DNA from: Alphaproteobacteria bacterium
GTDB lineage: Bacteria; Pseudomonadota; Alphaproteobacteria; MPNO01; UBA830
Reading direction: 5' to 3'
Length of the DNA: 64,000 nt
NCBI GenBank assembly: GCA_965243135.1
Contig: OZ251539.1
Location: 4,128,001-4,192,000, forward strand
Part shown: positions 26,363 through 63,874 of the stretch, piece after piece
Numbering within the stretch: position 1 is the stretch's first letter
Layout: each line of letters starts with the position of its first letter
Notes under the pieces: model-generated
The model's input: the letters and a program-made list of their open reading frames with translations, nothing else
Database searches by the model: none
What the model was told of the DNA's origin: nothing
Position numbers and translations under genes: made by a program

Positions 26363-26733
26363 CGCCGCGACTTCCGGCTTCTGAACCTGCTCGCGCCGTT
26401 GTCGATGAGCTCGTTCAGCGCGACCGGCATACGGCTCGAGCGCCAGCCGACGGGCGACGCCTGCGCATGAAGGACGCCGGCGACGCCTCCCGGACCGCGG
26501 CTTTCGTTCTGCTGGCGCTGGTCGCCATGTTCTGGGCGGCGAACACCATCGTCGCGCGCGCGACGGCCGACGAGGTGCCGCCGTTCGCCCTGACGTTCTG
26601 GCGCCTGTTCCTGTCGGCGCTCGCTTTCGCTCCCTTCGCGCTTCGCAACGTCTGGCGGCAGCGCCTCGTCCTGCGCCGCGACTTCCGGCTTCTGAACCTG
26701 CTCGCGCTGCTGTCGATGAGCTCGTTCAGCGCG
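26363..26733 (+). repeat. 60-bp direct repeat (26363-26422 and 26674-26733)
   Basis: CGCCGCGACTTCCGGCTTCTGAACCTGCTCGCG...TCGATGAGCTCGTTCAGCGCG twice, 2 mismatches. Confidence 0.9.
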
Positions 26734-27369
26734 CTGGTCTACAGCGGCCTTCAGTTCACCGAAGCGATCAACGGAAACCTGCTGCAGGGAGCGCTGCCCC
26801 TCTGCATCCTGTTGTCGGGCGCGCTCTTCGTCGGCCGCGCGGTGACGGCCCGCCAGGCCGTCGGCATGCTGCTCGGACTCGCCGGGCTGGTCGTCATCGT
26901 CGTGCGCGGCGATTTGCAAATCCTGCTCGGGTTGCGGATCAACGTCGGCGATCCGCTGGTTTTTCTGGGCGTCTTCGCGTCGGCCACCTACGCCGTCCTG
27001 CTGTTCAAGCGGCCGGAAGAACTGGACATGCCCGCCTTCCTGTTTCTGATGATGGCGCTCGGCAGCGTTCAGATCGCGCCGTTCTACGTCGCGGAGCATT
27101 TCTGGATCCGTCCCCTGCCGCCGACGGAAACGGCGCTATTCGCCGTCGGCTTCGTCGCGCTGTTTCCGTCGGTGCTGGCGCAATGGTTTTTCGCCGAGGG
27201 CGTGCGCCGCGTCGGCGCGGCGATGGCGGGATACATGATCTATCTTACGCCGGTATTCGGCGTCTTCATGGCCGTCGGCGCGCTCGGCGAGGCGTTCCGG
27301 GCGTTCCACGCTGCGGGCATCGCGGCGATCGCGGCGGGCATATGGCTGGCGACGGTTCGCCGCGGATGA
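26467..27369 (+). CDS. DMT/EamA family transporter
   Basis: About 10 hydrophobic helices, FWAAN..VAR, GDPLV, YLTPVFG, GE..RAFH. Confidence 0.9.
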   Translation: MKDAGDASRTAAFVLLALVAMFWAANTIVARATADEVPPFALTFWRLFLSALAFAPFALRNVWRQRLVLRRDFRLLNLLALLSMSSFSALVYSGLQFTEAINGNLLQGALPLCILLSGALFVGRAVTARQAVGMLLGLAGLVVIVVRGDLQILLGLRINVGDPLVFLGVFASATYAVLLFKRPEELDMPAFLFLMMALGSVQIAPFYVAEHFWIRPLPPTETALFAVGFVALFPSVLAQWFFAEGVRRVGAAMAGYMIYLTPVFGVFMAVGALGEAFRAFHAAGIAAIAAGIWLATVRRG

Positions 27370-28271
27370 TCCATCCCTACGCCATGTTGACTCTCGCCGC
27401 GCTGTTCTGGGCGGGTTCGGCGGTCACGGCGCGCGCCGTCGCCGACGAGGTGCCGCCGATGGCGCTGAACTTCTGGCGCTGGGCGTTCGCGTTTCTCGCC
27501 GCGCTGATCTGGACCTGGCCGGAGCTTCTGCGGCATCGCAGGCTGATCGCGGCGCGGTGGAAATACCTCGCCTTTCTCGCCCTGAGCTCCGCCGTCGGCT
27601 TCGGCGCCCTGCACATCGTGGCCATGCATTACACCACGGCGATCAACGGCTCCCTCTTCCAGGGCTTGATGTCGATATTCATCCTGATCGCCGCATGGAT
27701 CGTTCTGGGCGACCGCATCGGTCCGGCGGAAGGCGTCGCCGTCGCGCTGGGGTTCGCCGGCCTCGCGGCGATCGTCACGCGCGGCGACGCCGGGGTCCTG
27801 CTCGGGCTCCGGTTCAATCCGGGAGACATCCTCCTGCTCGTCGCGACGGCCTCCTATTCGATCTACGCGGTCTACCTGCGAAGAGCGCCGCCCGAGCTGA
27901 GCTCCAGCGGGCTCATGACCCTGATGTTCTTCTTCGCCTGCCTGTGGATGCTGCCGCTCTGGCTGATCGAAGTCTACGCTTTCGACCGTCCCCTGCCGCT
28001 CGGCTTCGACTCGGCCTGGTCCATCGCCTACATGAGTCTCTGTCCGTCCCTGCTGGCGCAGATTTTCTGGGCCGCCTCGGTGGCGAAGGTGGGGCCGGGA
28101 CGCGCCGGATACTTCGTGTACCTCTCGCCGGTGTTCGGCGTGGCGTTGTCGATGGCGCTCCTCGGAGAGGCTTTCCGTTGGTACCACGCCGCCGGAATCG
28201 CGCTCATCTTCGCGGCGATCTGGCTCGCGACGCGGAAGCCGCCGCGCGCCGCCCGCCCGGGGGATCGCTAA
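27366..28271 (+). CDS. DMT/EamA family transporter (paralogue)
   Basis: ATGA overlap; FWAG..ARAVADEVPP, GDILL, YLSPVFG, GEAFRWYH. Confidence 0.9.
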   Translation: MIHPYAMLTLAALFWAGSAVTARAVADEVPPMALNFWRWAFAFLAALIWTWPELLRHRRLIAARWKYLAFLALSSAVGFGALHIVAMHYTTAINGSLFQGLMSIFILIAAWIVLGDRIGPAEGVAVALGFAGLAAIVTRGDAGVLLGLRFNPGDILLLVATASYSIYAVYLRRAPPELSSSGLMTLMFFFACLWMLPLWLIEVYAFDRPLPLGFDSAWSIAYMSLCPSLLAQIFWAASVAKVGPGRAGYFVYLSPVFGVALSMALLGEAFRWYHAAGIALIFAAIWLATRKPPRAARPGDR

Positions 28272-32402: not shown

Positions 32403-34064
32403 TCAAGTGCGGAACGGCTCGAATTCGTCAAATCCAGATCTGGACATATGTTGTTCGATCGCGCTGGCGGTACGAAGCGCCCGCCGTTGTTTCAGATCCG
32501 CGACCCATATGAATTTTCGACCCTTTACGCTTTTGAAATGCAGTCTGCCGCGTTTCCCGTTTTTGACAGCCAAAACGGTTTTGGTTTCCGGATCCGGTTC
32601 AAACTCGAATGACGCGACTTTCGTATAACCCTTGTCTGGAACTCTAAGGCCGATGAAACTTGTTTCGGTCTTGCTGATTCCACATGGCACCACATGTTCC
32701 GGCTGTTTCTCTTCCTCCTTGAGCGGCACAAAAAGAAACGCCTGCGCTGTCTCCAAGCGCACCGAATCGCAGCTCGCCTGAAGGCAAAGCCAATGGTTGC
32801 GTTTGGGATCCAGAACGATTGTACCGAGACCAAGTTCCGGAGAGAATTTTAGCTGCTTTATCGCATAATCATCCGGATGCGAACGCGTACCCGTCAGCGC
32901 TGCAAATTTCTTCATCAACATATTGGCTTCAGCGGAATTTTTGGCAAATAGAGAGGTAAACGACTTCTTGAATCTTTCATTACCTGGCCTTCGAGCGACA
33001 TTGATTAAATTAGGAACATTCCGATATCCATTTAGTATCATCTCAATGACATCATTGACTTGTATGTCCGTTTCATTGTCGTTTTCGTCAATAAATTTGA
33101 GGCTATTACGCTCACCCGCTATCGATTGCACTCGACGTTCCAAAGCGGATTGACCAGCCAGATCCCGCCCGACTTTCCGAAGTCTTGTTGCGCTTGCCAG
33201 TTCCGAAAGAACGAGGTTGACCGCATATTCCTCCGCCTCGTCAGGAACCGGGATGCTCGCCCTATGATGAAAGTACGGTCCGTCCATGTCTCCGCTGAAG
33301 CTGCCCACGACTTGGTGCGTCACGTCTCTGATTTTTGCGACGGTCCCGAGCGCCACGTTCGACAACAGTCCCTCGGACAGCTTGGAAAACTCCTGCAACA
33401 GACGGTCCGGCAGTTCGGACTCGCTTATCTGATCGTTCGCCGAACCCGCTTGAAGCCTGGTACCATGTTTTTTGAACAGGCATACGATTTTCAACCCCAC
33501 TACGCTCCGTATTTCTCTTTTGTCGGAGACGCTCAATTTCATTCGCGATCGCTCGGCTGGCGTCCAAGATGTTTTGATGTCATTCAGTATCTTTCTCCGT
33601 CCGCGTTCCCCGGTATATATCGCGATCAGGCGAAGCCGACCGTTTCGTTCCTGATCGTGTCGGACAATCTCCCTGATCAGCGAACAGGTTGTCGCCCCGC
33701 TGTCGCCGTGGATTTCCCAGTCCAGACACACGATGTCCACTCGCGCCGCGGCTTTCAACACTCTCTGCGTGAGTTGATTCTGATTCTCTCCATGACGGTG
33801 ATGAAGCACGGAGCAGACCAACCCGATATCCATTGCGCCGTCCACGAGGGATTTTGCGTCGAGCACGTGAGTGACGTCTTGCTTTCCGGCAACGACATCG
33901 TCATTCTCTGCCGCCCGACGATGGCCGCGTCCCGGTCGAACGACAACGTTCGGCACTGGATCTTCGACGGTCTCCAAGGTGGCTTCGTCATCCACCACGA
34001 TCATGGTCTGAGCGAAACTTTCGGCAGCCTTCCGTCGATCCTCGCAAAAATCATCCCTCGTCAC
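32403..34064 (-). CDS. Large response-regulator receiver-domain protein with uncharacterised C-terminus
   Basis: IVVDDE acidic pocket, CLDW phosphoacceptor-like Asp, IYTG, LFKK; GTG start after GGAGAG overlapping the kinase 3' end. Confidence 0.8.
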   Translation of the reverse strand: MTRDDFCEDRRKAAESFAQTMIVVDDEATLETVEDPVPNVVVRPGRGHRRAAENDDVVAGKQDVTHVLDAKSLVDGAMDIGLVCSVLHHRHGENQNQLTQRVLKAAARVDIVCLDWEIHGDSGATTCSLIREIVRHDQERNGRLRLIAIYTGERGRRKILNDIKTSWTPAERSRMKLSVSDKREIRSVVGLKIVCLFKKHGTRLQAGSANDQISESELPDRLLQEFSKLSEGLLSNVALGTVAKIRDVTHQVVGSFSGDMDGPYFHHRASIPVPDEAEEYAVNLVLSELASATRLRKVGRDLAGQSALERRVQSIAGERNSLKFIDENDNETDIQVNDVIEMILNGYRNVPNLINVARRPGNERFKKSFTSLFAKNSAEANMLMKKFAALTGTRSHPDDYAIKQLKFSPELGLGTIVLDPKRNHWLCLQASCDSVRLETAQAFLFVPLKEEEKQPEHVVPCGISKTETSFIGLRVPDKGYTKVASFEFEPDPETKTVLAVKNGKRGRLHFKSVKGRKFIWVADLKQRRALRTASAIEQHMSRSGFDEFEPFRT

Positions 34065-37026
34065 TGTTTCTCTCCATTCGCGAAATTCTGAACGCCGCTC
34101 CCGTGGAAGGCTTCCCGGCTTCAAGCGTCAGGTTCCAACCCTCCTTGTTCAACGCCGCCCTCGATATATGGAGCCCCATTCCCCTGCCTCCCGGTTTTCT
34201 CGAAAACCGCAACAGGAAAATGTTGGTGCGATCTCCCGCCCTTACGCCGGGGCCGTTGTCCCGAACCACCAAGGCCCCGTCTTCGGCGTCCAATTCGATC
34301 TCGCGCGGGCGATCCTTTATGTCCTTCAACCAGAATATCGAGTTGTCGACTAGGTTGGCGAAGGCCGAATAGAAGGTCGAAGGGTAACTGACGACCGTCG
34401 CTTCCCGGAAAGCGTCCGTAGTCGTCAAGGCAACGGAGTGGCGTTCCAGCCGCTGTTCGAACAGATCCCTGATGAACTTGTATATCTCCGTACCGCGAAC
34501 CTCCACCCGGTTGCCGTAAAGTCGACGGTCGAATGGCGTGAACATGGTCAGATAACCGTCGAGATGATCGAATGCGCCCCTCATGTCTCTGTAGAGATTG
34601 TCCATATCAGGATTGGCTCGGGCCCAAGCCCGCAATCTTCTGAAGCCGTCTCTGAGCGCGCCAACCGTCTTCTCGAACTCGTGGCTGACGATGCTCACGG
34701 CCATTCCAATCTGGGCCATTTCCAGATCGGTGTCGCGCTGTTCGCGAAGATCCTCCAGTTCTTCTTCCATCGCTACGACCACGTCAATCGAATCGAACTC
34801 CCCTTCCGACCACGATTGACCTAATTCGTCGAATTGCTCCTTCAGGCGCTGGAGACGTATGCGCTCGCGTTCGAACGCGCTGTCGATCTTCTGCTCCAGT
34901 TCCCTGCGTTTCCCGGCGAGGGCATCGACTCCGACCTGCGCGCGCTTTAGTCTCTCCAGTTCGGAAAGGACTTCGTCTACGGTGGAGTTCACGGTTCTGA
35001 AGCTGTTTCTCGTCGTGGACTGCGCGATGGCAGCCACCTTCGAAACCGCTTCGTCCGACTCTTTTCTCAGGCGACGAACCGCTCCTACGGCTGTCTGGCT
35101 TCGCGACCGCACCGCCGAGTCGATTCGCACGAATTGATGGAATGGCAGCTTGAAGTTCGCCGCCGAAGTGCCGACATATTCCTCGATCTGCAATTCGGCC
35201 GGGCCGAGAACGTCGCTTTCCAGCCGTTCGAACTCGCGCGTATAGTCGAGCCACTGGTTGGACAGCCTTCGGGGCAATCCAACTCTCGGCCTGACGACGA
35301 TCGATCGTGCGCGGATCTCCTGCAGCTCTCCGCGCCCGTCCCTCTCTATCCTCATGAGCGCCAGCGCTTTCCCTCTAGGATCGCGTTTTGACCGAAGCAC
35401 CCGATCAGTTCCCCGTTTGACCTTCTCCAGCGTTTCTTCCGTTTCCTTCTCTATAGCGTGCCCGGCAAGTCCGTCAAAAAACAGTTCGAGAGACCGTTCG
35501 AAATTCTGCCGTTTGGAACTAGCCTGCCGCGCTCGGCGCTTTCGGCTTTCGTCCGCTTTCTGGAGTTCTTGCCTTTTCCGTTCCCAGTCTTCCGAGCGGT
35601 TTCCGTCTTCGCGGAAAAAATCGCCAGCGGACTGAAGAAAAAAATTGATGAGAATCGAGCGGAACTGACGATACGCTAGATTCTCGCTGAAGCCCTCCCT
35701 CCCGGCCTTTTCGTTCAAGGCTCCGTTGGCGGCGGCAGTGAGTTCTATCGCGCCGAACATTCGCCGAAACGAATAGAAGTAGTAGCCCGCGCCAAGCGTG
35801 CGGCGCCTTTCGATGTCCAGCCAGTCGTAATCCGCTCCTCCGTATGGCTGAACCCGGATACCGTCTCTGTATATGTATATTCCGCCCAGTCTGCCGGTTT
35901 TCCGGCTCATGCGCGCAAAATCCTCCGGCGGCACCAGGGATGCGGAGCGTTCGCCCTGCAGGATGGCGACCGACAGATCGAAGGGCCCGCATATCGTCTT
36001 GCGGCCGTCTCCCTCGTTCCAGCTCAGCACGTATCTATCCGGTTTCGTCTGATAGACGTGGACATTTCCCTGAAACTGACCGTATTCGTCGAAGCGGCCT
36101 TCGATGCGATGATCGACCATCAGGAATTCGTCTGGAGTGAAAAACGCGCTTTCGCCGATAAACTCCCGCGGCGCGCCTTCGTCCGGATAGTCTCGAAAGC
36201 GCGCCACGATTGGCGGAGGCTTGCTTCCCGGCGTCATGGTGTTCGTGAAGCCGAGAAGGTGCTTCTCGAAGTTCGTCGCCTTGTCCTGCTCCCTTGTATC
36301 CATGTCGTCCTGGACAAGGCGTTCCATCGGTCTGACGAAGAAGTGGGTGCCGGCGCCTTCGCCGGAAAGGGAGGGCGCGCCGAGCTCCGCGTTCAACTTG
36401 CGCGGATCGAGGTCGAATTCGTCCAGATCCCGCCTGATCGCCGCGAGGCGGTCGCGGTCGATCCGATCGGCAAGCCTGTCCACGACATTCGAATACTCGG
36501 CCGTCATCTCCCTGACCGCCGCTCCGTCCGGCAGTGCGGCCGCCGGAAATTCCCGGACGGGGATTTCAATCTCGTCGAGATCGAGTCCTGGAAGCTCGAA
36601 GAGTTTCCAATTCACGAAGGCCGCGACCAGCCCGTCGCCGGGAACGCCGTTCCTTCTGGCGCGGGTAAGGATGAATAGCTGGGGGCCGAGAATCGCGGCC
36701 GCGAGACGTCCGATTCCTTTTTCTCCAAGTGTCGGCCGCTTCGGCTGATCCGGATCCCTTGGGGGCGGCGGCAATCCTTGTTTCGTCCCCAGCTTGCTTT
36801 CCGTCCCCAAGGTGAGCCAGCGTTTCTCGAAATCGTCGCGCGTCATGCCGAGGCCGTCGTCCCGAAGCACCAGCAAGTCGTCTTCGCGGAAATAGTCGAC
36901 CTCCACGTTCCGGGCGTAGGCGTCATGGGCGTTCTTGAACAGCTCGCTGATCGCGGTCGGAATGCCGGCGATCTGCTGCCGGCCCAGCATGTCGACGGTA
37001 CGCGCGCGTACGTGAAACCTGGCCAT
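34051..37026 (-). CDS. MORC/MutL-like GHKL ATPase fused via coiled coil to a histidine kinase
   Basis: N-terminal ELFKNAHDA, DDGLGM, GEKGIGRL; long charged helical middle; C-terminal H-box SHEF, N-box NLVDNS, DNGPG, GRGMGL. Confidence 0.88.
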   Translation of the reverse strand: MARFHVRARTVDMLGRQQIAGIPTAISELFKNAHDAYARNVEVDYFREDDLLVLRDDGLGMTRDDFEKRWLTLGTESKLGTKQGLPPPPRDPDQPKRPTLGEKGIGRLAAAILGPQLFILTRARRNGVPGDGLVAAFVNWKLFELPGLDLDEIEIPVREFPAAALPDGAAVREMTAEYSNVVDRLADRIDRDRLAAIRRDLDEFDLDPRKLNAELGAPSLSGEGAGTHFFVRPMERLVQDDMDTREQDKATNFEKHLLGFTNTMTPGSKPPPIVARFRDYPDEGAPREFIGESAFFTPDEFLMVDHRIEGRFDEYGQFQGNVHVYQTKPDRYVLSWNEGDGRKTICGPFDLSVAILQGERSASLVPPEDFARMSRKTGRLGGIYIYRDGIRVQPYGGADYDWLDIERRRTLGAGYYFYSFRRMFGAIELTAAANGALNEKAGREGFSENLAYRQFRSILINFFLQSAGDFFREDGNRSEDWERKRQELQKADESRKRRARQASSKRQNFERSLELFFDGLAGHAIEKETEETLEKVKRGTDRVLRSKRDPRGKALALMRIERDGRGELQEIRARSIVVRPRVGLPRRLSNQWLDYTREFERLESDVLGPAELQIEEYVGTSAANFKLPFHQFVRIDSAVRSRSQTAVGAVRRLRKESDEAVSKVAAIAQSTTRNSFRTVNSTVDEVLSELERLKRAQVGVDALAGKRRELEQKIDSAFERERIRLQRLKEQFDELGQSWSEGEFDSIDVVVAMEEELEDLREQRDTDLEMAQIGMAVSIVSHEFEKTVGALRDGFRRLRAWARANPDMDNLYRDMRGAFDHLDGYLTMFTPFDRRLYGNRVEVRGTEIYKFIRDLFEQRLERHSVALTTTDAFREATVVSYPSTFYSAFANLVDNSIFWLKDIKDRPREIELDAEDGALVVRDNGPGVRAGDRTNIFLLRFSRKPGGRGMGLHISRAALNKEGWNLTLEAGKPSTGAAFRISRMERNSDEG

Positions 37027-38112
37027 CTATCCCGCGCAGGTCCGGCAGACTTCCTCATGCCGAAGGACATGCCTGCCGACGGCGCTCGCCAGCCTGACCG
37101 GAACCGCGTTCCCGATCTGACGCGCCATTGACCCTATACCTCCGAAAAATTCGAACGAATCGGCGAAAGTCTGAAGTCTCGCCGCTTCCCGTACGCTCAG
37201 CGCCCTGTTCTGCTCAGGATGTCCGTAGCGCCCGTTCGAAAGGCTGATGCACCGGGTCGTCAGGGCAGCTGCGGGCCGGTCCTTGCGAAGTCTTCCGTAA
37301 ACGTCCGTATGGCCCTTGTAATTGTTGTGGCAATCAAGTCTGAGGCGCTCAGGCCAGCTTTCCCGTCCGCAGCCGGGAGGGGTCGCCCGGATTCGCTCCA
37401 GATTTATCCGCGACAGGTTCGCCGCGCAATGATTGGCGATTTTCTCGCAGGATTGGCCGGCCTCCAGCGAGGGAAGGTCCTCGATCCATTTCCACACGGA
37501 CTCCGGTTCAGGATGGTCGGTGCCGGGTCCGTGCGTCGCGTCCGGCACCTCGATCGGGCCGAGCAGGCTGGCCAGCAATACGAAGCGCCGACGGTATTGA
37601 GGGACGCCGAAGTCCTGCGCCTTCAGAATCCCCGTGTCGTGTTTGTATCCCAGCCTATCGAGCAGTTCGGTAAACCTGTCCAGCGGCCCCCCCTTTTTGT
37701 TGTCGACGTCCTGAAGTCCGGCGACATTCTCGACGAAGACGTAATCAGGTCGAAAGGTTCCGATGAACCGGTGGATTTCGTCGAGCAGGCTGGCGCGGGT
37801 GTCCTTGCGGTCCCGGGTCGTCCGTTGCCTGGTGAACGGCTGGCAGGGAGCGCAGGCCGAAAACAGCAACGGGCGCTTCCGGTTTTCCCGGTTCTCCGGA
37901 ATCACCGATGTCAGATCGCTATGCCGGAGATGCCGGATGTCTTTCAGGAAAAATTTCGCATCCGGAAAATTCCCGGCGAACGTGCGCCCGGCATCGGCAT
38001 CATTGTCGATCCCCGCAAGGATCCTCATGCCCACCTCCTGCAGCCCGGCACTCGTGCCTCCGCATCCGCAGAAGAAGTCAACCACTTCGATCACAGACAA
38101 CCCGCCATGCAT
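37027..38112 (-). CDS. DNA (cytosine-5) methyltransferase
   Basis: Motif I FCGCGG, IV PCQ, VI ENV, VIII QYRRR, IX/X REAARLQTF...QIGNAVP. Confidence 0.95.
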   Translation of the reverse strand: MHGGLSVIEVVDFFCGCGGTSAGLQEVGMRILAGIDNDADAGRTFAGNFPDAKFFLKDIRHLRHSDLTSVIPENRENRKRPLLFSACAPCQPFTRQRTTRDRKDTRASLLDEIHRFIGTFRPDYVFVENVAGLQDVDNKKGGPLDRFTELLDRLGYKHDTGILKAQDFGVPQYRRRFVLLASLLGPIEVPDATHGPGTDHPEPESVWKWIEDLPSLEAGQSCEKIANHCAANLSRINLERIRATPPGCGRESWPERLRLDCHNNYKGHTDVYGRLRKDRPAAALTTRCISLSNGRYGHPEQNRALSVREAARLQTFADSFEFFGGIGSMARQIGNAVPVRLASAVGRHVLRHEEVCRTCAG

Positions 38113-38225: not shown

Positions 38226-38265
38226 TTGACTTCCATTGCGAAACGCTTTAGAACAAAAGATGAAT
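38226..38265 (+). promoter_or_regulatory. imuA promoter with alphaproteobacterial LexA (SOS) box
   Basis: TTGACT(38226)-N17-TAGAAC(38249) overlapped by GAAC-AAAAGAT-GAAT (38251-38265), matching GAAC-N7-GAAY. Confidence 0.8.
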
Positions 38266-38279
38266 CTCCGGATGACGCC

Positions 38280-39005
38280 ATGCTTGAACGATACTCACGA
38301 AGCCGGTCCGCCGGCGACGGTGCGGCGGCCGGCCCCGAGGCCGTCCGGCGGGCCGACGCAAGCGCGCCGGTCGACCCTTCGGACCTCGGGTTTCTGCGCA
38401 GCGCCCTGCACGAGGTGTTCGCCGCGGACGCGGGCGCCGCGACGGCTTTCTGCGCTCTGCTGGCCGGCCGGCTGGCCCGCGCCGGAAACTTCGTCCTTTG
38501 GTGCGAACAGCCCCGGGCGCTCGACGCCGGCGAGCTTTACGCACCGGCGCTGCGGACTTTCGGCGTCGATCCCGAGCGGATGCTTCTGGTGCGGGCGCGA
38601 CGCGACGCGGATGCGCTATGGGCGATGGAAGAGGGTTTGCGCAGCCGCAGCCTCGCCGCGGCGGTCGGCGAAGTCGCCGAACTGAGCCTGACCGCCGCCC
38701 GCCGCCTGCAACTTGCCGCCGAGGCCGGCGGCGCCGCGGCGATCGTCCTGCGGCCGAATCGCGAGACGCCGTCGCCGGGAGCCGCCGCGACGCGCTGGCG
38801 CATCGGCGAACCGCCGGCCCGAACGGTCGACGCGCCGCGGCAGCCGGCTTCCCCGGGCCTCGGCGCAGCGCAATGGCGGGCGAGGCCGTTTCGCTGCCGG
38901 GGCGGCGCCTTCCGAATGATCGAGTGGAACCATGAAACGGGTGATTTCTCTGTGGCTGCCCCGGTTCGCGACGGACCGCGCGCGCTGCCGGAACCGGCCG
39001 GATAG
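38280..39005 (+). CDS. imuA: ImuA (RecA-like mutasome accessory protein)
   Basis: ALHEV, DALWAMEEGLR, LTAARRLQLAAE, AATRWRI; upstream of imuB. Confidence 0.88.
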   Translation: MLERYSRSRSAGDGAAAGPEAVRRADASAPVDPSDLGFLRSALHEVFAADAGAATAFCALLAGRLARAGNFVLWCEQPRALDAGELYAPALRTFGVDPERMLLVRARRDADALWAMEEGLRSRSLAAAVGEVAELSLTAARRLQLAAEAGGAAAIVLRPNRETPSPGAAATRWRIGEPPARTVDAPRQPASPGLGAAQWRARPFRCRGGAFRMIEWNHETGDFSVAAPVRDGPRALPEPAG

Positions 39006-42000
39006 ACCGTTCGGCCTGATCGAATCTCGCGGCGGCCAGTTTCTGCTGCATGCCGTCGACGAGAAGGCGGAACGGGCCGGGATCCGCGTCGGGCAGACAT
39101 TGGCCGACGCCCGCGCGATTCTGCCCGAGATCGACGCCGCCGAAGTCGACCCGGCGGCGGAAGCGCGCGCCCTGGCCCGTCTCGCGGAATGGTGCGGCAG
39201 ATACACTCCGTGGACCGCTCCCGGCGGTTTCGGAAACGTCGGCGACGGCTCGGTCTGGCTCGACGTCACCGGTTGCGCCCGCCTGTTCGGCGGCGAGCCC
39301 GCCTTGCTCCGCGACCTGGCGCGCAAAGTCGGAGATCTCGGTTTCTCGGCCCGCGTCGCGGCCGCCGACACGCCGGGCGCCGCGTGGGCCGTCGCCCGTT
39401 ACGGCCGTTCTCGCGTGGAGCGCGTTCTCCGGGGCCAGTCCCGGGACGCGATCGCGCCGCTGCCGGTCGCGGCGCTCCGGCTGACGCAGCCGACCGTCCT
39501 GGACTTGCATGCGCTGGGGCTGCGTCGAGTCGACGATCTGCTGGCCATGCCGCGGGCGACGCTGGCCGACCGGTTCGGCCGCGAAATCGTCGATCGGCTG
39601 GACCAGGCGCTGGGCGCTCGCCCGGAGCCGATCTCGCCCGTCGCCCCGGCGAGCCGGACGTTCGCGCGAGTCGGATTCTCCGAGCCGGTCGGACGCAGCG
39701 AGGATATCGCCGAAGCGCTGGGCAACCTCGCAAGCGAGATCGCGGCCGCCCTCGAGGCCGAAGCACGCGGCGCACGGCGACTGGTCCTCGCCCTCCATCA
39801 TTCGGACGGCGCGGTCGACCGGCTCGCCGCCGGGACGAGTTGGCCGAGTTGCGACGCCGGGCATCTGGCGCGCCTGTTCGCCGAACGCCGCATCGAGTCG
39901 GCGTTCGGCGTCGACGCCATGACGCTGACCGTTGCCGAAAGCGAGCGGCTGCGGCCGCTGCAGGCTGCCTTCGATCGCGGCGGTCAGGAAGCGGACGTCG
40001 CCGAGCTTGCCGACCGGCTGAGCGCGCGGCTCGGCGCCGACCGCGTGTTGCGGCCTTCGCCGCGGGAAAGCCGCATTCCGGAACGCGCAGTCGAACTGTC
40101 CCCCGTCACGGCCATGCGGCCGCCGCCGAGCGCTTCGTGGCGGGACGGGATCCTTCCTCTACGGCTTTTTTCCCCGCCGGAAGAAATCGAGGCGGCGCCG
40201 CCGGGTTTCGACGATCCGCCGACGACGTTTCGCTGGCGCAGGCGAACGTTCCGCGTCGAGCGCGCGGACGGTCCCGAACGGCTGTCGCCGGAATGGTGGA
40301 GACCGGACGACCGGGCCGCCTCCCGCGACTACTACCGGGTCGAGGACGATAACGGCCGCCGTTTCTGGATCTACCGGGAAGGCCGCTCCGGGTGGCGCCT
40401 CCATGGAATATTCGGAAGAAGCGCCGCGCGGGCGGGACAAAGACCGGGCGCGCCGGAACGCCGGAAGCGCCCGAGCGCTCCGCCTCGCCGGCCCGCCCGC
40501 CCGCCGCCCTACGCCGAGCTCGCCGTCACGACCAACTTCTCCTTTCTCCGGGGCGCGTCCCATCCCGAGGAACTCGTGGCCAAGGCCGCCGCGCTCGGAC
40601 TTTCCGCGGTTGCCGTTGCCGACCGCAACACGCTCGCGGGCGTGGTCCGCGCCCATCAGGCCGCGAAAGAGGCGGGCATCCGGCTGCTCGTCGGCGCGCG
40701 GCTCGATTTCGAGGACGCGCCGCCGCTGCTCTGCTTTCCGTCCGACAGGGCGGCCTACGGCCGGCTCTCCAAACTCATCACCCTCGGCCGCCTGCGCGCT
40801 CCCAAGGGCGCCTGCGCGCTTCGTCTGGAAGATCTTGCCGCGCATGCCGGAGGACAGTCCCTCGTCGCGATGCCGCCGGACGACCCCGAGGATCCGCAAA
40901 TCCTCGGCTACCTTGCCCGGCTGCGCGAGATGCCGGGAGCCGGCGTCTGGGCGGCCGCGCGCTTCCGCTACGGCGGCGGCGATGCGGCGCAGCTGCGGAA
41001 GATCGCCCGCCTCGCGGCGCGGGCCGGGGTTCCCATGGTCGCGATCAACGACGTCTGCATGCACGTTCGGGAACGCAAGCCGCTGCTCGACGCGCTCGCC
41101 TGCATCCGCGAAGGCTGCACGATCCGCGAGGCGGGTTTCAGGTTGGAGCGCAACGCCGAGCGTTGCCTCAAGCCGCCCGAAGAGATGGCGCGGCTGTTCC
41201 GGGACTATCCCGACGCGGTACGGCAGACGATGGAAATAGCCGGACGTTGCGCCTTCTCGCTGGACGAGTTGCGCTACGACTATCCCGACGAGGCGCCGTC
41301 CGGCGCGACCCCGCAGGCCGAGCTCGAACGCCTGGTTTGGGAGGGCGCCGCCGAACGTTATCCAGACGGCGTGCCGGACGACGTGAAAACGCAGGTCGCC
41401 CGCGAGCTCGGGCTGATCGGAGAGCTGGGCTACGCGCCCTATTTCCTTACCGTTCAGGATATCGTCCGCTTCGCCAGATCCAGGAGCATTCTGTGCCAGG
41501 GACGCGGGTCGGCGGCCAATTCCGCGGTTTGTTATTGCCTCGGCATCACCGCCGTCGATCCCGTGCGCATGGATCTCCTGTTCGAGCGCTTCGTGTCGGC
41601 CGCGCGCCGGGAGCCGCCCGACATCGATGTCGATTTCGAGCACGAGCGCCGCGAAGAGGTCATTCAGTACGTCTACGGCAAATACGGCCGCGAACGCGCC
41701 GCGCTGGCGGCGACCGTCATCCACTACCGTGCGCGCATGGCCGTGCGCGAGGTCGGCAAGGCGATGGGACTCAGCGAAGATACCACCGCCGCGATCGCCT
41801 CCACGGTCTGGGGATGGAGCGGGAATGGCATAGCCCCCGAACAGGCTGGCGAGGCCGGTCTCGATCCGAACGACCCGCAGCTTTGCGCAACCCTTCGACT
41901 CGCCGGCGAGCTGACCGGCTTTCCGCGCCACCTGTCGCAGCATCCCGGCGGCTTCGTCGTCACGCAGGGACCGCTCTCCGAACTCGTCCCCGTCGCCAAC

Positions 42001-43632
42001 GCGGCCATGCCCGACCGCACCACCATCGAATGGGACAAGAACGACCTCGACGCACTCGGCATCCTTAAGGTCGACGTGCTCGGGCTCGGCATGCTGACCT
42101 GCATTCGCAAGGGCCTCGACCTGCTGGCGCGGCACTACGGCAGAAAGTTCGACCTTCACCAAATTCCCGCCGACGATCCCGACGTCTACGACATGCTGTG
42201 CGCGGCCGATTCCGTCGGCGTGTTCCAAGTCGAAAGCCGGGCTCAGATGACCATGCTGCCACGCCTCAGGCCGCGCAACTTCTACGACCTTGTCATCGAG
42301 GTCGCGATCGTCCGGCCCGGACCCATCCAGGGCGACATGGTCCATCCCTATCTGCGCCGCCGCAACGGCGAGGAGACGGTCGACTATCCCTCCCCGGAAC
42401 TGCGCGCCGTGCTGGAAAAGACCATGGGCGTGCCGTTGTTCCAGGAGCAGGCGATGAGGATCGCCATCGTCGCCGCCGGATTCACCCCGTTGGAGGCCGA
42501 CAAGCTGCGGCGCGCCATGGCGACCTTCCGCAACGCCGGCACGCTGGACGCCTTCCGGGAAAAGCTGGTCGGCGGCATGGTCGCCAACGGCTACGATCAG
42601 GAATTCGCGGAACGCTGCTTCCGCCAGATCGAGGGGTTCGGCGAGTACGGCTTCCCGGAAAGCCACGCGGCGAGCTTCGCGCTGCTGGTCTACGTGTCCG
42701 CCTGGCTCAAGAAGCATTACCCGGACGCGTTCGCCGCCGCCATCCTCAACAGCCAGCCCATGGGATTCTACAGGCCGGCCCAGCTCGTTCGCGACGCCCG
42801 AGCGCACGGCGTCGAGGTCCGTCCGGTCGACGTCAACCACAGCCTGTGGGACAACGCCCTGGAAAGGAACGGAAATGCCAGCGCCCTGCGTCTGGGGTTG
42901 CGACAGGTCAAGGGATTTTCGAAGGAGCATGCAACGACCCTGGCGCAGGAAGCGTCGGTCCGCCCTTTCTCTTCTCCGGCGGACCTCCGACGCCGCACGG
43001 GCCTGCCGACGGCGGCGCTGGAGCGGCTGGCGCATGCGGACGCTTTCGGCTCGATGGGGATCGGCAGGCGTCAAGGGCTATGGGCGGCGGCGGCCCCCGC
43101 GCCGTTGCCGTTGTTCCAAAGCAATGAAGCGCGCCCGATCCCGAAGTTGCCGTCGATGGCGGCAGGGGAGGCCGTTACCCGCGACTACGCGTTTCTCGGC
43201 CTGTCGCTCAAGACGCATCCTCTGGCCTTGCTGCGCGCGGAATTGGGCGCCGCCGTTCCAGCCGAACGGCTTGCGGAGATGAAAGACGGCGCGGCGGTCT
43301 CGGTCGCCGGGCTTGCGCTTATGCGGCAGCGGCCCGGCACGGCGAGCGGCGTTATCTTCATGACGATCGAAGACGAGACCGGAGTGGCCAATCTGGTGGT
43401 CTGGCCGAAGATCTTCGAAAGGTACCGCCGGGTCGTGATGGGCTCCCGCCTGATTCGGGCGAGCGGGCGGCTTCAACGCGAGGGGATCGTCATCCATGTC
43501 ATCGCCGACCGGATGGAAGATCTGACCGATCGCCTGCGCGCTCTCGCCGCCGGAAATGCTGCAAGTCCCGGACGAAACCCTGGCGGTTCCGGCCGGCTCG
43601 GCAAGCTGTACCCGTCGCGGGACTTTCGTTGA
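38932..43632 (+). CDS. ImuB-DnaE2 (ImuC) fusion: inactive Y-family polymerase plus error-prone C-family polymerase
   Basis: N-terminal ImuB (RVISLWLP, LDVTGCARLFGGE, GPERLSPEWW, RDYYRVED, WRLHG) in frame via a Pro/Arg linker with DnaE2 (YAEL..TNFSFLRGAS, PDIDVDF, KVDVLGLG, C-terminal SRDFR). Confidence 0.9.
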   Translation: MKRVISLWLPRFATDRARCRNRPDRPFGLIESRGGQFLLHAVDEKAERAGIRVGQTLADARAILPEIDAAEVDPAAEARALARLAEWCGRYTPWTAPGGFGNVGDGSVWLDVTGCARLFGGEPALLRDLARKVGDLGFSARVAAADTPGAAWAVARYGRSRVERVLRGQSRDAIAPLPVAALRLTQPTVLDLHALGLRRVDDLLAMPRATLADRFGREIVDRLDQALGARPEPISPVAPASRTFARVGFSEPVGRSEDIAEALGNLASEIAAALEAEARGARRLVLALHHSDGAVDRLAAGTSWPSCDAGHLARLFAERRIESAFGVDAMTLTVAESERLRPLQAAFDRGGQEADVAELADRLSARLGADRVLRPSPRESRIPERAVELSPVTAMRPPPSASWRDGILPLRLFSPPEEIEAAPPGFDDPPTTFRWRRRTFRVERADGPERLSPEWWRPDDRAASRDYYRVEDDNGRRFWIYREGRSGWRLHGIFGRSAARAGQRPGAPERRKRPSAPPRRPARPPPYAELAVTTNFSFLRGASHPEELVAKAAALGLSAVAVADRNTLAGVVRAHQAAKEAGIRLLVGARLDFEDAPPLLCFPSDRAAYGRLSKLITLGRLRAPKGACALRLEDLAAHAGGQSLVAMPPDDPEDPQILGYLARLREMPGAGVWAAARFRYGGGDAAQLRKIARLAARAGVPMVAINDVCMHVRERKPLLDALACIREGCTIREAGFRLERNAERCLKPPEEMARLFRDYPDAVRQTMEIAGRCAFSLDELRYDYPDEAPSGATPQAELERLVWEGAAERYPDGVPDDVKTQVARELGLIGELGYAPYFLTVQDIVRFARSRSILCQGRGSAANSAVCYCLGITAVDPVRMDLLFERFVSAARREPPDIDVDFEHERREEVIQYVYGKYGRERAALAATVIHYRARMAVREVGKAMGLSEDTTAAIASTVWGWSGNGIAPEQAGEAGLDPNDPQLCATLRLAGELTGFPRHLSQHPGGFVVTQGPLSELVPVANAAMPDRTTIEWDKNDLDALGILKVDVLGLGMLTCIRKGLDLLARHYGRKFDLHQIPADDPDVYDMLCAADSVGVFQVESRAQMTMLPRLRPRNFYDLVIEVAIVRPGPIQGDMVHPYLRRRNGEETVDYPSPELRAVLEKTMGVPLFQEQAMRIAIVAAGFTPLEADKLRRAMATFRNAGTLDAFREKLVGGMVANGYDQEFAERCFRQIEGFGEYGFPESHAASFALLVYVSAWLKKHYPDAFAAAILNSQPMGFYRPAQLVRDARAHGVEVRPVDVNHSLWDNALERNGNASALRLGLRQVKGFSKEHATTLAQEASVRPFSSPADLRRRTGLPTAALERLAHADAFGSMGIGRRQGLWAAAAPAPLPLFQSNEARPIPKLPSMAAGEAVTRDYAFLGLSLKTHPLALLRAELGAAVPAERLAEMKDGAAVSVAGLALMRQRPGTASGVIFMTIEDETGVANLVVWPKIFERYRRVVMGSRLIRASGRLQREGIVIHVIADRMEDLTDRLRALAAGNAASPGRNPGGSGRLGKLYPSRDFR

Positions 43633-56976: not shown

Positions 56977-57244
56977 GCCTTTCTGCGAAACGCGGATCGA
57001 GGCGACGAACTGCGTTGCCGCTTCCCTCGATGGAAAGAGCGCCAGGATCGCTTGAATTTTCCCGGGCAGGCGATTTCCTACTGTTCGTCCGGCCCAAAGT
57101 TCGAGCGTGCGATTTTGCGAATCGGCCATGTCCAACGTGAGTACGGCCGTAGACCGCGAGAAAGGACCTGGACGGGCTCGTCAAAGAGAACATGTTTCAC
57201 CTTTGGTTGCGCATGGGTTAAGCGTTCGGTCGTGGGGTGGCGGT

Positions 57245-58032
57245 CTATTTGTTGAGAACCCGCCTCCAGCCCCGGCACAGGGGTTTCAGCGTCCTTGACC
57301 GGGAGAGCGCGTTCTTTCCGGGTGCTGCCGCGGCCCTGCGTTTTGCCGACCTTGCTGGCGGCCCGGTAGCAGCTTCCTTCGAAGCGCGGCGCCTCGCAGA
57401 AGGTCTCGAGCAGGACCGGAGCGTAGCGGTGCTCCCAGTCGTCCGGCAGCCGTCGTTCGACCAGAGCGAGGGGACGCGAGATTTTTGATCCGAACCCAAG
57501 GCAAGGCCCGGGCATTGTTAACCGCCAGCGGTGCGGCGGCGGGTCTCGGGGTTCCACGAGTTCGTCCCTGGGCGCGATCTTCCAGGCTGCGGCGCCGAAG
57601 CCGAGGACGGCGAGGGGTTCGCCGCCAGCGGCCCGGACCAAGTATCGCATTTGCGCGCCGGGCAGCGTGGAGTAGCCAAGATAGTGGTAGCGAGCGACGA
57701 ACTCGTTCCAGAGGCGGCCTTCGCCTGCGTTCCGGACAGGCTCCGCGGCGACAGGTTGGACATCGGCGAGACGTTCGGGGACCGGGAACAAGGGCCTGTC
57801 GGTCGCGGGGCCGGGCACGGGCGTACGGTCGGCGTTTGCCTTGGCGGCGGCAGGACGATCACGCCGTGCATGCGCAACATGGCCACCCGCGCGATCCTTT
57901 AGGCCGCCGTTGCGCCAGTCGAGGCGCCGGCAGACCTCCCGCGACAGCGCCCTGCGGCTGAGGCTGCCCCTCAGGGAGCGGCTCGTCCTCGGAGAAGTCG
58001 CGCCCGCAGTAGCGGCAAGGGCCGCCGCTCAC
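57245..58032 (-). pseudogene. DUF4338 (Druantia DruA-like) protein, frameshifted
   Basis: RYCGRDFS, LWNEFVARYHYLGY, GFGAAAWK, LPDDW...PVLLETF, GSCYRAA, GKTQGRG. Confidence 0.75.
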
Positions 58033-58092
58033 GGTCCTTGGGGGAGAGGCCAGGAGCGGAGGCGCTCCTCGTCGGCGCCCCACGGCAGCCAG

Positions 58093-59679
58093 TCAGCAGG
58101 GCCTTCGGGCGGTGGACGACGGGCGCAAGCATAGCAGCCAGCTGTACGGCGAGATGCCGGCCAGCGTGCCGAAGATGGACATGCCCGCCAACCGCGCTCC
58201 GTCCACGCTTTGCGACCCGAACGAAAGCTTCCGGCTGAGACCGCGCAAGCCGCGTTCGGCGGGGTTGTTGTCCATGGGAACGGCCGCGTTGTCCACGAAG
58301 GTTGTCAGACCGTCGCGGTGGCGCAGCAGGGAGTCCAGAGGGCCGCGTTGCGCCGCGCTCTCCGGGAGCGCGTCCCGCGCCTTTTTCGCCGCCGAGAAGA
58401 ACGCTTCGGCGAACCTCGCGAGCCGCCGCTGGGCGGCGGCGTTGCCCGGGCGCGCCAGACGCCTGGCGTTGAGACGGTATAATGCGTGACGAAGCCACTT
58501 TTGGGCGAACTGCGCGAGGTTCGGGTAGCCGGTCTCGAGGTTGACGAAGTCGCGTCTGGCATGGACCCAGGAAAGGACGATGCACCCTTCCATGACGCGC
58601 GCCAACTTCCGATAGGCGGAGTAGCGGTCGCAGACCAGGTGAGCCGCCTGTCCGGGCGAGCCGAGCCCCCTGAACAACTCAAGGGCGGCTTCCGCGCTGC
58701 GTGACGGCGAGGATGCGGACCGCGTCCGCCGCCCGGGCGGCCCAGGCGCGAGCGTTGCCTCCGTCCTCCTCGCCCAACTCCCGTCCACCCCGTTTCGTCG
58801 CCGTGAACGACCGGCGCTTCCGACAGGCGCCGGGAGATCTCATCGTCGAGCGGTCAGGCGCAGGAACCGTCGCTGGGCGTCCGCCAACGTGCCTGGCGCA
58901 ATGGCGAGCCCGTGCTGGCCCAGCGCACGGCAGACCGAACGCAGCGGACGATGCAGGCCATACCTCTCCGCCAGGACGTTCGCCCAGACGGAGACTCCAT
59001 ATCGGGGAAACAGCCTCGCCGGGGCCGGGCCGACGACCTCCTTTTCCGGTCGGCAGGTACAGGCCGGGCGCAGCCGCTTCCGTCGAATCCTCCGGACATA
59101 GGTGACGGTCCTGGTCTCGACGGTCTCCGTGTCCTTCCAACCGTTCGAGCCCCATGCCTTGCCGCAGTCCGGGCACATGCGCTCGTCCGGAATCGACTCT
59201 TCCTCGCGAACGGGCAGTTCGGGGCGCTGCGTGCGGCCATGCGACGGCGTTCCCTGTCGACGCCCCCGGCGTCGACCGGTTGCCGCAGGCCGCCGCTCGC
59301 TGCGGCGCCCGAACAACTCCCGGGCAAACCTGCGGCTGCGGGACTCCAGACTCTCGTTCTCCGGCGTCTCCGCAGTTCGACACGGGGGCGGCACCTCATG
59401 TCTCTTTATCTCGGCGTCGCAGCAACACTTCTCCGCTTTCTGGACCGCGGTCTCCAGCTCCCGGCCGAGATCCGCACTCTCCCGGCGCGACGCGGCCAGC
59501 TCCCGGCCGAGATCCGCACTCTCCCGGCGCGCCGCGGCCAGCTCCCGGCCGAGATCCGCACTCTCCCGGCGCGACGCGGCCAGCGCCAGACTGAGATCCG
59601 CACTCTCCCGGCGCGACGCGGCCAGCTCCTGGTCGCTGCCCGACAACTCGGTCCCCGGAAGTGAATGTTCGCTCGACAT
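58093..59679 (-). pseudogene. IS66 transposase TnpC, frameshifted
   Basis: LFGRRSE, CPDCG, HGDETGW, CDRYSAY, WVHARRDF, DNNPAERGLR in successive frames. Confidence 0.88.
59454..59629. repeat. 42-bp tandem repeat, 4 full units plus a partial
   Basis: Unit CCAGCTCCCGGCCGAGATCCGCACTCTCCCGGCGCGACGCGG; encodes (SADLGRELAASRRE)n in TnpC. Confidence 0.95.
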
Positions 59680-59895
59680 GGCGACCGTGGAGCCAAAAAC
59701 GCGTGTCCAGCCCCCGCCCGAATCATTCGCCAAGCTCAATCGAACGTTTACTCCGCGAGGAGCGCCGGGCCGCCAACCATGGGTGGACAGCCTCAGGCAC
59801 CCGGAACGAACGCGCTCTCCCGGTCAACGATGTCTGGTTGAACCCTTGCCTGGAGGCGGACTCTCAACACCGTCACCCCACGACCGAACGCTTAC

Positions 59896-60250
59896 GCGCA
59901 TGGCCGAGGACGATACGCGATGCAAAGACGCATGGGAGTTCAAGTATTCGACGAACATGGTCTGGGTGAAGGCTCCCGGCGGCATGGGCTTCCGGGTGCG
60001 CGGGGAACATGAAACGCTCTTGGTCGGCTTGCGCGGCGCGTTCCCGTTGCCTGATCCGAGGGATATGCCGTCGAGCGTCTACCGGAGCGAGCGGAAGGCG
60101 CCTCGCCATAGCGCGAAGCCGGAATACTACTACGAGTTGTTCGAGAGGCTGTATCCTGACATCGCCAAGATCGAGCTGTTTTCACGCACGGCGCGGGCCA
60201 GCTGGACAGCGTGGGGAAACGCGATTTTCACGCCGAACGAGGGGCTGTGA
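59896..60250 (+). pseudogene. MT-A70-family adenine methyltransferase, C-terminal part
   Basis: AWEFKY..MVWVK, GMGF.VRGEHE.LLVG.RG, HSAKP, IELFSR, WTAWGN; no DPPW half seen. Confidence 0.8.
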
Positions 60251-63451: not shown

Positions 63452-63874
63452 ATGACCATGAAGAAAATCAGCATCATCCTGCTGGCCGCTGCGATCCTCG
63501 CGTCCTGCGACGATGCCGACGTGGCGAAAGGCAACGTCTCGAAGGCGGCCAAGAATTTCGAGATCGCTCGACGGATCGTGTTCATCAACGGCATTACGGA
63601 CAACTACCTGCTCGAAATCCGCGGCCGTTGCGCGATCAATGCCGACGTTCATGACGATCAGCTTGAAGTGACCTGCAAGGTTCCGGACGGATACAAGGTT
63701 CACTTCCTGGGGCTTTCGGACAACGTCACCTATCTGGTCGAACAGATCGACGCGAAAGCCGTCTCGATCAATCATTATCGCGTCACGTTCAAGCCGCAGA
63801 CGATCGTGCCGTCGATAGATCTGCGCGGCGGCGGCGATTACGTCGGACCGACGATCAACAGGGGCAAACAATGA
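63452..63874 (+). CDS. Conserved phage-type lipoprotein
   Basis: Lipobox ILASC; NVSKAAKNFEIARRIVFINGITD.YLL, HFLGLSDNVTY; RBS GGGAG. Confidence 0.7.
   Translation: MTMKKISIILLAAAILASCDDADVAKGNVSKAAKNFEIARRIVFINGITDNYLLEIRGRCAINADVHDDQLEVTCKVPDGYKVHFLGLSDNVTYLVEQIDAKAVSINHYRVTFKPQTIVPSIDLRGGGDYVGPTINRGKQ

Follow-up and report, generated by a model that had tools for sequence, protein, structure and literature searches.

What a cytosine DNA methyltransferase, a large histidine kinase and a response regulator could be doing together in a unit that contains no known nuclease is the question raised by a three-gene cassette on the minus strand, at positions 32403-38112 of a 64-kb stretch of contig OZ251539.1 (positions 4,128,001 to 4,192,000; assembly GCA_965243135.1) from an alphaproteobacterium. 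The whole of this stretch is called the window here, and coordinates refer to it. The answer towards which we lean, while granting it somewhat less than an even chance, is that the cassette is a self-contained, mobile, restriction-modification (R-M)-like module that distinguishes self from non-self and serves in defence, addiction or both through a His-Asp phosphorelay. It is held with moderate confidence that the three genes form one R-M-like unit with the methyltransferase as the protective partner, because the triad is conserved, decays asymmetrically, is associated with Vsr and is mobile. The three genes, with lengths in amino acids (aa), are the following:

37027-38112, minus strand: C5 cytosine DNA methyltransferase (MTase), 361 aa
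34051-37026, minus strand: kinase, 991 aa, presumably soluble, with a GHKL-S5 ATPase module, a long helical linker, a DHp domain (HEF_HK) and a catalytic ATP-binding (CA) domain
32403-34064 including the stop codon, minus strand: receiver protein, 553 aa, with a GTG start at 34064

These genes are translationally coupled in the window. The ATG of the kinase follows the TAG stop of the MTase immediately (0-bp gap), and the receiver, whose maximal open reading frame (ORF) spans 32403-34124, most likely starts at the GTG at 34064, since this codon has a GGAGAG box 5 nt upstream and yields a protein equal in length to the best homologue (P0004, 553 aa, 98% identity); from this start, the receiver gene shares 14 bp with the end of the kinase gene (stop at 34051). 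The GC content of the cassette is 0.575 vs 0.688 in the 4.7 kb of each flank, and the cassette is an intact, horizontally acquired three-gene island. The initial annotation, made from the letters of the window alone, had described three intact genes with the same gap and overlap, a GC content visibly below that of the flanks and no adjacent Vsr, HNH or restriction endonuclease (REase), all of which was found again. The cassette is flanked by a SnoaL-like gene on one side and by imuA/imuB-dnaE2 on the other, neither Vsr, HNH nor a known REase adjoins it in the window, and no nuclease family is matched either in the three cassette proteins (Pfam, PADLOC, NCBIfam) or in the window flanks. Around the island, no informative direct or inverted repeats, tRNA genes, promoter or terminator patterns or Rfam families were detected.

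That the three genes belong together is indicated by their occurrence elsewhere. A genome scan with one genome per species gave 341 pattern matches, 44 of them confirmed, and 34 loci, whose state was scored by tblastn. Of the 34 loci, 18 have all three genes arranged like those of the window (MTase, kinase, receiver), and 11 others have the kinase followed by the receiver and then a convergent MTase that is more distantly related (33-36% identity). The three genes are all intact in 28 of these 29 full loci (the exception is L009, whose kinase lies in two frames), and none of the 29 loci that could be judged has a kinase and receiver without an adjacent MTase. Two loci are incomplete for other reasons: L002 is cut by a contig end inside the kinase, and L032 is an ambiguous remnant at a contig start. 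In the last three (L017, L033 and L034), the MTase is directly joined to a remnant of the receiver 3' end and the kinase is gone. The MTase has no stops in L033 (2-605) and L034 (8981-10084), where 59 or 28 aa of the receiver remain (in L033 a contig end truncates the MTase, which is visible only from query residue 209), while L017 (8870-10759) carries the same deletion and one in-frame stop in the MTase; overall, the decayed remnants retain the last 28-250 receiver codons. Keeping the MTase while losing kinase and receiver is the pattern expected if the latter two are harmful without the MTase.

One gene cluster recurs directly after the receiver in 9 of the 34 loci, and the four members scanned were all Vsr; apart from this cluster, no separate nuclease gene is a conserved neighbour across the 34 loci. 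The same three genes are found in annotated replicons of Pantoea, Rhizobium and Pseudoalteromonas (kinases 33-35% identical), one of which also has Vsr. The cassette lies under its flanks in GC content in 26 of 28 loci (mean difference -0.083), and in a quick tree of the kinases the rows from Deinococcota, Rhodothermota and Binatota are nested among Gammaproteobacteria, with near-identical kinases in different families (Devosiaceae and Paracoccaceae). The cassette has thus moved between phyla. Its parts have diverged together, their distance matrices correlating with r 0.52-0.96 (0.74-0.96 without the stretch of the receiver that is the most variable part of the cassette), and with r 0.85-0.91 between the MTase and the kinase N-terminal module. 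The nearest relatives of the window proteins in the genome collection are between 46% (receiver) and 59% (kinase) identical.

This family has been described before. In PMC8011034 (Bellieny-Rabelo, Pretorius and Moleleki 2021, Genome Biol Evol), a purely computational study, HEF_HK/Response_reg_2 pairs were found with an upstream C5 methylase, with 91.6% linkage over 644 regions; kinases of its 'group 1' combine HATPase_c_3, HEF_HK and HATPase_c (174 of 222 kinases), the kinase is said to be related to paraMORCs, and a two-component system regulating R-M systems was proposed. Its supplementary table contains rows with the window layout, some of them continuing with HNH_2 or Vsr, and the supplement mentions DNA_methylase 687 times, HNH_2 82 times and Vsr 38 times. 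The window cassette corresponds to 'group 1', with a DNA_methylase, a three-domain kinase and a Response_reg_2 protein without other known domain, and on the strength of the sequence matches we are confident that it belongs to the 2021 HEF_HK/Response_reg_2/C5-methyltransferase family. The novelty implied by the initial annotation is weakened, since the architecture and its MORC/paraMORC and R-M reading appear in PMC8011034 and the Pfam families PF19191 and PF19192 exist. That paper gives no analysis of the receiver C-terminal module, of decay patterns or of folds.

The MTase matches PF00145 (5.4e-55), TIGR00675 dcm (3.2e-42) and the PADLOC profile MTase_II/DruM (3e-82). Its translation contains FCGCGG, PCQ (Cys90), ENV, QYRRR and GNAVP, which we take to be the core motifs of a C5-MTase, with Cys90 in PCQ presumably catalytic.

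The kinase is built of four parts:

35617-37026, minus strand: GHKL ATPase with an S5-like transducer (MORC/SMCHD1-like), kinase residues 1-470
34717-35592, minus strand: long helical (coiled-coil-like) linker with no family assigned, kinase residues ~479-770
34516-34713, minus strand: DHp domain with the phospho-acceptor His782 in the HEF motif, kinase residues 772-837
34084-34377, minus strand: CA domain, kinase residues 884-981

Pfam recognizes HATPase_c_3 at residues 24-124 (1.9e-15), HEF_HK (PF19191, 9.9e-26, 90.5 bits vs a cut-off of 24.1) and HATPase_c (PF02518) at residues 884-981 (7.1e-14). In an alignment of 30 homologues, the N-terminal module has as invariant residues E28, N32, D35, D56-G58-G60, G101/G104/G106, G226-T227 and K440, and the histidine kinase half retains H782, E783 and F784 and the N, G1, F and G2 boxes (N891, D923/G925/G927, F937/F941 and G946-G951) without exception; between residues 758 and 984, the family profile matches histidine kinases of solved structure (best 6.8e-10). 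Residues 1-520 were modelled with AlphaFold2 at moderate confidence (27 sequences, pLDDT 70.3, pTM 0.62); in this model the ATPase domain is followed by another alpha/beta domain, and from residue 479 a long helix extends to the end. The model gave 359 Foldseek matches in the Protein Data Bank (PDB) at E <= 0.001, the best being SMCHD1 (5.5e-10), MORC3 (8.3e-10), MORC2 (8.3e-10) and MORC4 (3.6e-08), with Hsp90, GyrB and MutL ranking below; the SMCHD1 and MORC alignments cover 450-590 columns, nearly the whole query, with low TM-scores (0.34-0.48). With such best matches, 'MORC-like' is a fair structural description of the N-terminal half, for which paraMORC-like is the safer name. Within the cassette, no part is better conserved than this module, and the linker, whose residues 657-763 give weak matches to designed helical bundles, is the least conserved part of the kinase (mean pairwise distance 0.58 vs 0.32 for the N-terminal module).

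MORC and paraMORC1-5 GHKL ATPases have been reported in R-M contexts (PMC2292703; Iyer, Abhiman and Aravind 2008). Like the window kinase, these prokaryotic proteins have, in the part of PMC2292703 accessible, N-terminal GHKL and S5 domains beside a cytosine methylase and often Vsr; in contrast to it, no histidine-kinase fusion or receiver link is described there for paraMORC1-5 (neither 'receiver' nor 'two-component' occurs as a word), and their systems usually include helicases or nucleases, neither of which is present in the window cassette.

Kinases of this type also appear in collections of mobile elements. The PHROGs family phrog_8137, with no annotated function, matches kinase residues 384-985 (34072-35877, minus strand) at 2.8e-124, and four records were found in a phage collection: one in the E. 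coli phage CP-1639, annotated 'remnant integrative element / histidin kinase-like protein', one in phi467, annotated as a sensor kinase gene, and two short unannotated fragments. The CP-1639 annotation suggests that phrog_8137 probably comes from prophage-flanking DNA. The receiver has no record in the phage collection and two in the plasmid collection, both in partial contexts.

In the receiver protein, the following can be distinguished:

33471-34016, minus strand: REC-like domain with D25/D26, phospho-acceptor D115, T151 and K198 (553-aa numbering)
32406-33452, minus strand: 349-aa unassigned output module
32766-32786, minus strand: signature motif C-x4-C-D (CLQASCD)
32406-32432, minus strand: C-terminal tail FDEFEPFRT, residues 545-553, preceded by an invariant Gly

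Its N-terminal ~200 aa match Response_reg_2 (PF19192, 8.4e-34, 117.7 bits vs a cut-off of 27). D25, D26, D115 and K198 are invariant in 40 receivers and T151 is present in at least 90%; D25, D26, D115 and T151 are invariant also when a distant branch is included (the receivers of Pantoea, Rhizobium and Pseudoalteromonas, 15-18% identical). To judge from these residues, kinase and receiver retain everything that is required for phosphotransfer. The initial annotation had presented the kinase as two GHKL modules (a MORC-like N-terminus and a histidine kinase with an H-box), a view on which Foldseek, Pfam and the invariant H-box agree; it was also right in reading a C5-MTase with its core motifs, and in giving the receiver about 550 aa and a large unassigned C-terminus containing LCLQASCDSVR.

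The output module belongs to no family in Pfam, PADLOC, NCBIfam or PHROGs and has no match among PDB chains by sequence, even at E <= 10. When 29 output modules were compared with Pfam at E <= 10, zf_CopZ was hit by 3 of the 29 and every other family by one, so that nothing was consistent. A profile of the module recovered 1480 representative clusters (50% identity) from a library of 1.84 billion proteins; the 150 matches listed are all either proteins of ~550 aa with the module at the same place or shorter pieces, which look like fragments (P0249, for example, begins inside the REC domain). No fusion of the module into a longer protein was found, which is weak evidence, and the ESM Atlas returned for homologue P0098 only unnamed clusters and one with Response_reg_2. 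The AlphaFold2 model of the module (pLDDT 83.7, pTM 0.77) begins with a helical lobe, which leads through a small beta-hairpin and further helices to a beta-rich lobe; a long C-terminal helix then ends in a disordered tail. In this tail, G-FDEFEPFRT is invariant or nearly so in 29-40 homologues despite its predicted disorder (pLDDT < 50), which suggests a short docking peptide. Across eight receivers, including the distant branch, the beta lobe proper retains no invariant polar residues other than C427, C432 and D433, and R542, in the helix and tail that follow it, does not vary either; the block 221-230 of the output module, where LCLQASCDSVR lies, is among those of lowest entropy (0.50). A PD-(D/E)xK nuclease was considered for the beta lobe and rejected, because its candidate residues D523-L524-K525 are not conserved (K/M/E-L-R in the distant branch); the fold search brought up no nuclease.

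How these parts could work together may be outlined as follows. To judge from its enzyme family, the MTase would place 5-methylcytosine on host DNA. The GHKL-S5 half of the kinase, if it behaves like the proteins that its model resembles, would be a MORC-type, ATP-driven dimerising clamp on DNA that might engage the DNA and read its methylation. The state of the clamp could be transmitted through the ~290-aa helical linker to the DHp/CA core, leading to phosphorylation of His782, an event to which the conserved residues point, and the phosphoryl group would then pass to Asp115 of the receiver, a transfer suggested by the residues and by the strict linkage of the genes. Phosphorylation may finally switch the C-x4-C-D module of the receiver into producing an output, the weakest link in the chain, for which toxicity, damage to DNA or RNA, and the recruitment or control of another component are candidates. 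A route from clamp to phosphorelay to new effector domain is the most economical reading, because the unit has no other candidate effector. In its full form, that of a nuclease-free immune or addiction system in which a MORC-type clamp reports methylation by phosphorelay to a phosphorylation-gated C-x4-C-D effector (predicted to consist of a helical lobe and an SH3-like barrel), it is a tentative proposal that we regard as possible but rather doubtful. A two-component-type His-Asp phosphorelay with a receiver-fused effector is reportedly also used by the anti-phage system Detocs, which is said to have neither methylase nor MORC-like module and to rely on a nucleoside-phosphorylase effector.

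Several observations weigh against an R-M-like role. The structure prediction and fold search of the receiver C-terminus that the initial annotation had proposed gave a good model, but Foldseek found no match at E <= 0.001 in the PDB or a viral library, and no nuclease or toxin family is matched. PADLOC, also suggested there, recognizes the MTase, but neither the kinase body nor the receiver is represented by a model in PADLOC-DB v2.0.0. No excess covariation was seen between the target-recognition region of the MTase and the variable parts of the receiver when the kinase was controlled for (partial Mantel p 0.06-0.19, with 13 cassettes past a crude threshold), and in a literature search that covered subscription journals thinly, no experimental work on the three-gene form was found. 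The remaining points come from Ambrosia, the only tested system that likewise combines a methylase with a kinase/ATPase and a receiver, found in P. aeruginosa (bioRxiv 10.1101/2025.09.30.679545; accessible part of the preprint) composed of an XRE regulator, an N6-adenine MTase, a kinase/HSP90-like ATPase, a REC-wHTH protein and an HNH nuclease. Its authors describe it as having features of R-M together with a two-component system, and its anti-phage defence needs all genes as well as the phospho-acceptor Asp of the receiver. Infection raises reporter expression, the authors favour control of transcription by the two-component pair, and phage is not protected by methylation by the MTase. Ambrosia, as described in that part of the preprint, resembles the window cassette in that genes for a methylase, for an ATPase of histidine-kinase/HSP90-like type and for a REC protein are clustered, but it has five genes, and two of these, coding for an XRE regulator and an HNH nuclease of type IV, have no equivalent in the window cassette. 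Its MTase modifies N6-adenine, whereas that of the window is a C5 enzyme, and its receiver is described as combining REC and wHTH with the acceptor D60, whereas in the window D115 lies in an insert-bearing Response_reg_2 domain.

The alternative that survives best is that of a regulatory two-component system, in which the kinase would respond to an intracellular cue (nucleotide pools, DNA state or infection) and the receiver, once phosphorylated, would bind DNA by its C-terminal module to adjust transcription (of the MTase, its own operon or unlinked genes), giving epigenetic or expression control with no killing or cleavage. Such a reading is offered in the Discussion of PMC8011034, and in Ambrosia it is favoured by experiment, since, in the available text, the reporter is induced, a mutant in the receiver Asp loses defence and AbrC has a wHTH; these data keep a transcription-control model alive. 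Three helices and a beta-hairpin in the output-module model (H70-88, H91-99, H101-112 and E117-131) could also form a winged helix. However, this stretch has a net charge of -5 and is one of the most variable in the module, and no consistent HTH family is found in the 29 output modules even at E <= 10. Regulation alone does not explain either why the MTase is missing from none of the 29 loci and decay spares only the MTase, or why three genes travel together between phyla without a regulated target. This explanation is considered unlikely, although it deserves to be taken seriously.

Restriction could instead reside in the kinase itself, its GHKL-S5 half damaging or trapping unmethylated DNA in the manner of BbrUII and HgiDII, with the relay only tuning or reporting this activity. 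BbrUII/HgiDII restriction enzymes partner with an m5C methylase, and their N-terminal GHKL ATPase is related to that of the window kinase: residues 4-110 match NF050001, the family of these enzymes, at 2.7e-16, and the GHKL domain matches the PADLOC REase_II profile PDLC03419 at 5.3e-09. The N-terminal module is, besides, the most conserved (0.32), with many invariant acidic residues at 241-444. But the NF050001 match extends over only ~100 aa and reaches 59.3 bits vs a cut-off of 550, and beyond the GHKL domain the window kinase continues, unlike these enzymes, with a transducer, a coiled coil and a histidine kinase. An ATPase and transducer of MORC/SMCHD1/Hsp90 type accounts for the fold of residues 1-520, and in the model of this region, whose moderate quality (pLDDT and TM-scores as given above) limits the statement, there is no sign of an additional nuclease domain. 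A restriction activity of the kinase seems quite improbable.

A specific form of the output step in the R-M-like reading would be that the beta lobe of the receiver is a toxin of MazF/PemK/CcdB type (RNase-like or gyrase-poison-like), released by phosphorylation, which would make the cassette an abortive-infection or addiction module. MazF-family proteins account for 20 of the 39 PDB Foldseek rows listed (19 named MazF, MazE-MazF or toxin-antitoxin, plus 5xe2; target full length). The best match is 5xe2, a mycobacterial endoribonuclease (E 0.029, probability 0.98, TMt 0.54), and the other MazF matches have probabilities of 0.66-0.93 and TMt of 0.46-0.61; PemK-like proteins stand at ranks 4, 9 and 40 among the 50 viral-library matches listed, and the topology, a beta-barrel followed by a C-terminal helix, is compatible. 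Nevertheless, none of these matches reaches E <= 0.001 in either library, identity is ~9%, no Pfam PemK match is found in the 29 members and SH3-like barrels are common. To our knowledge, the C-x4-C-D motif has no counterpart in MazF or CcdB. The predicted resemblance of the output module to MazF/PemK is weak and to be taken as a lead only, and a toxin of this type seems improbable. Finally, a chance neighbourhood of an orphan Dcm-like methylase and an unrelated two-component pair, in favour of which only the frequency of orphan C5 methylases and of cytoplasmic kinases can be cited, has a negligible probability: in 29 of 29 judged loci, drawn from at least four phyla, the three genes stay together in one of two fixed arrangements, they are translationally coupled in the window, MTase and kinase N-terminal distances are correlated (r 0.85-0.91), and PMC8011034 reports 91.6% linkage over 644 regions.

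Other features of the window concern the surroundings of the cassette. Next to it, at 38226-43632 (plus strand), an imuA-like ORF is followed by a single ORF of 1566 aa with IMS (ImuB-type) and full DnaE2-type polymerase domains, which either represents imuB and dnaE2 fused or in the same frame or results from an ORF listing that reads through a boundary; upstream of imuA, GTTC-N7-TTTC resembles an alphaproteobacterial LexA box. On the other side, two ORFs for EamA transporters (26467-27369 and 27183-28271, plus strand) overlap by ~190 bp in different frames and may be a frameshifted or duplicated transporter gene. The initial annotation had regarded the neighbouring defence loci as decayed, which holds for only some of them. 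The region 57078-60250 looks like a decayed mobile or defence region and holds a run of apparent fragments: a 246-aa ORF with a DruA domain spans positions 53-222 of a 297-position profile, a 231-aa piece of an IS66 transposase spans 111-283 of 284, and what is left of an MT-A70 methylase spans 55-171 of 172. By contrast, the HEC-01A gene at 9212-10501 (minus strand), which codes for a 429-aa AAA_21/AbiEii-like ATPase and lies in a second patch of low GC content (0.54-0.60 vs ~0.62-0.65 around it), appears full-length, with a full-length PADLOC match at 3.3e-174. At the end of the window, a 140-aa ORF (63452-63874, plus strand) matches Pfam Phage_VG64, the Mycobacterium phage VG64 family (6.8e-51), suggesting prophage-derived DNA.

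The window cassette is, then, an ordinary, intact new member of a family that had been described computationally, to which the MORC/SMCHD1-like fold, the two gene orders, the asymmetric decay and the C-x4-C-D motif are added here. In plants and animals, MORC ATPases act in the silencing of methylated or foreign DNA. In the cassette, a MORC-like module is joined within one protein to a histidine kinase, whose output can be read, and a cytosine methylase stands beside it, which makes the coupling of MORC ATPases to methylation testable by simple genetics and phosphotransfer assays. If the proposed working is true, the cassette would serve in bacteria as a model of the way in which the methylation state of DNA is linked by MORC ATPases to an output, and the C-x4-C-D module, in itself a large, conserved and widespread family (1480 clusters), would be a new effector fold in bacterial immunity. 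It is in this widespread output module and in the MORC-kinase fusion that the worth of the locus for experiment lies.

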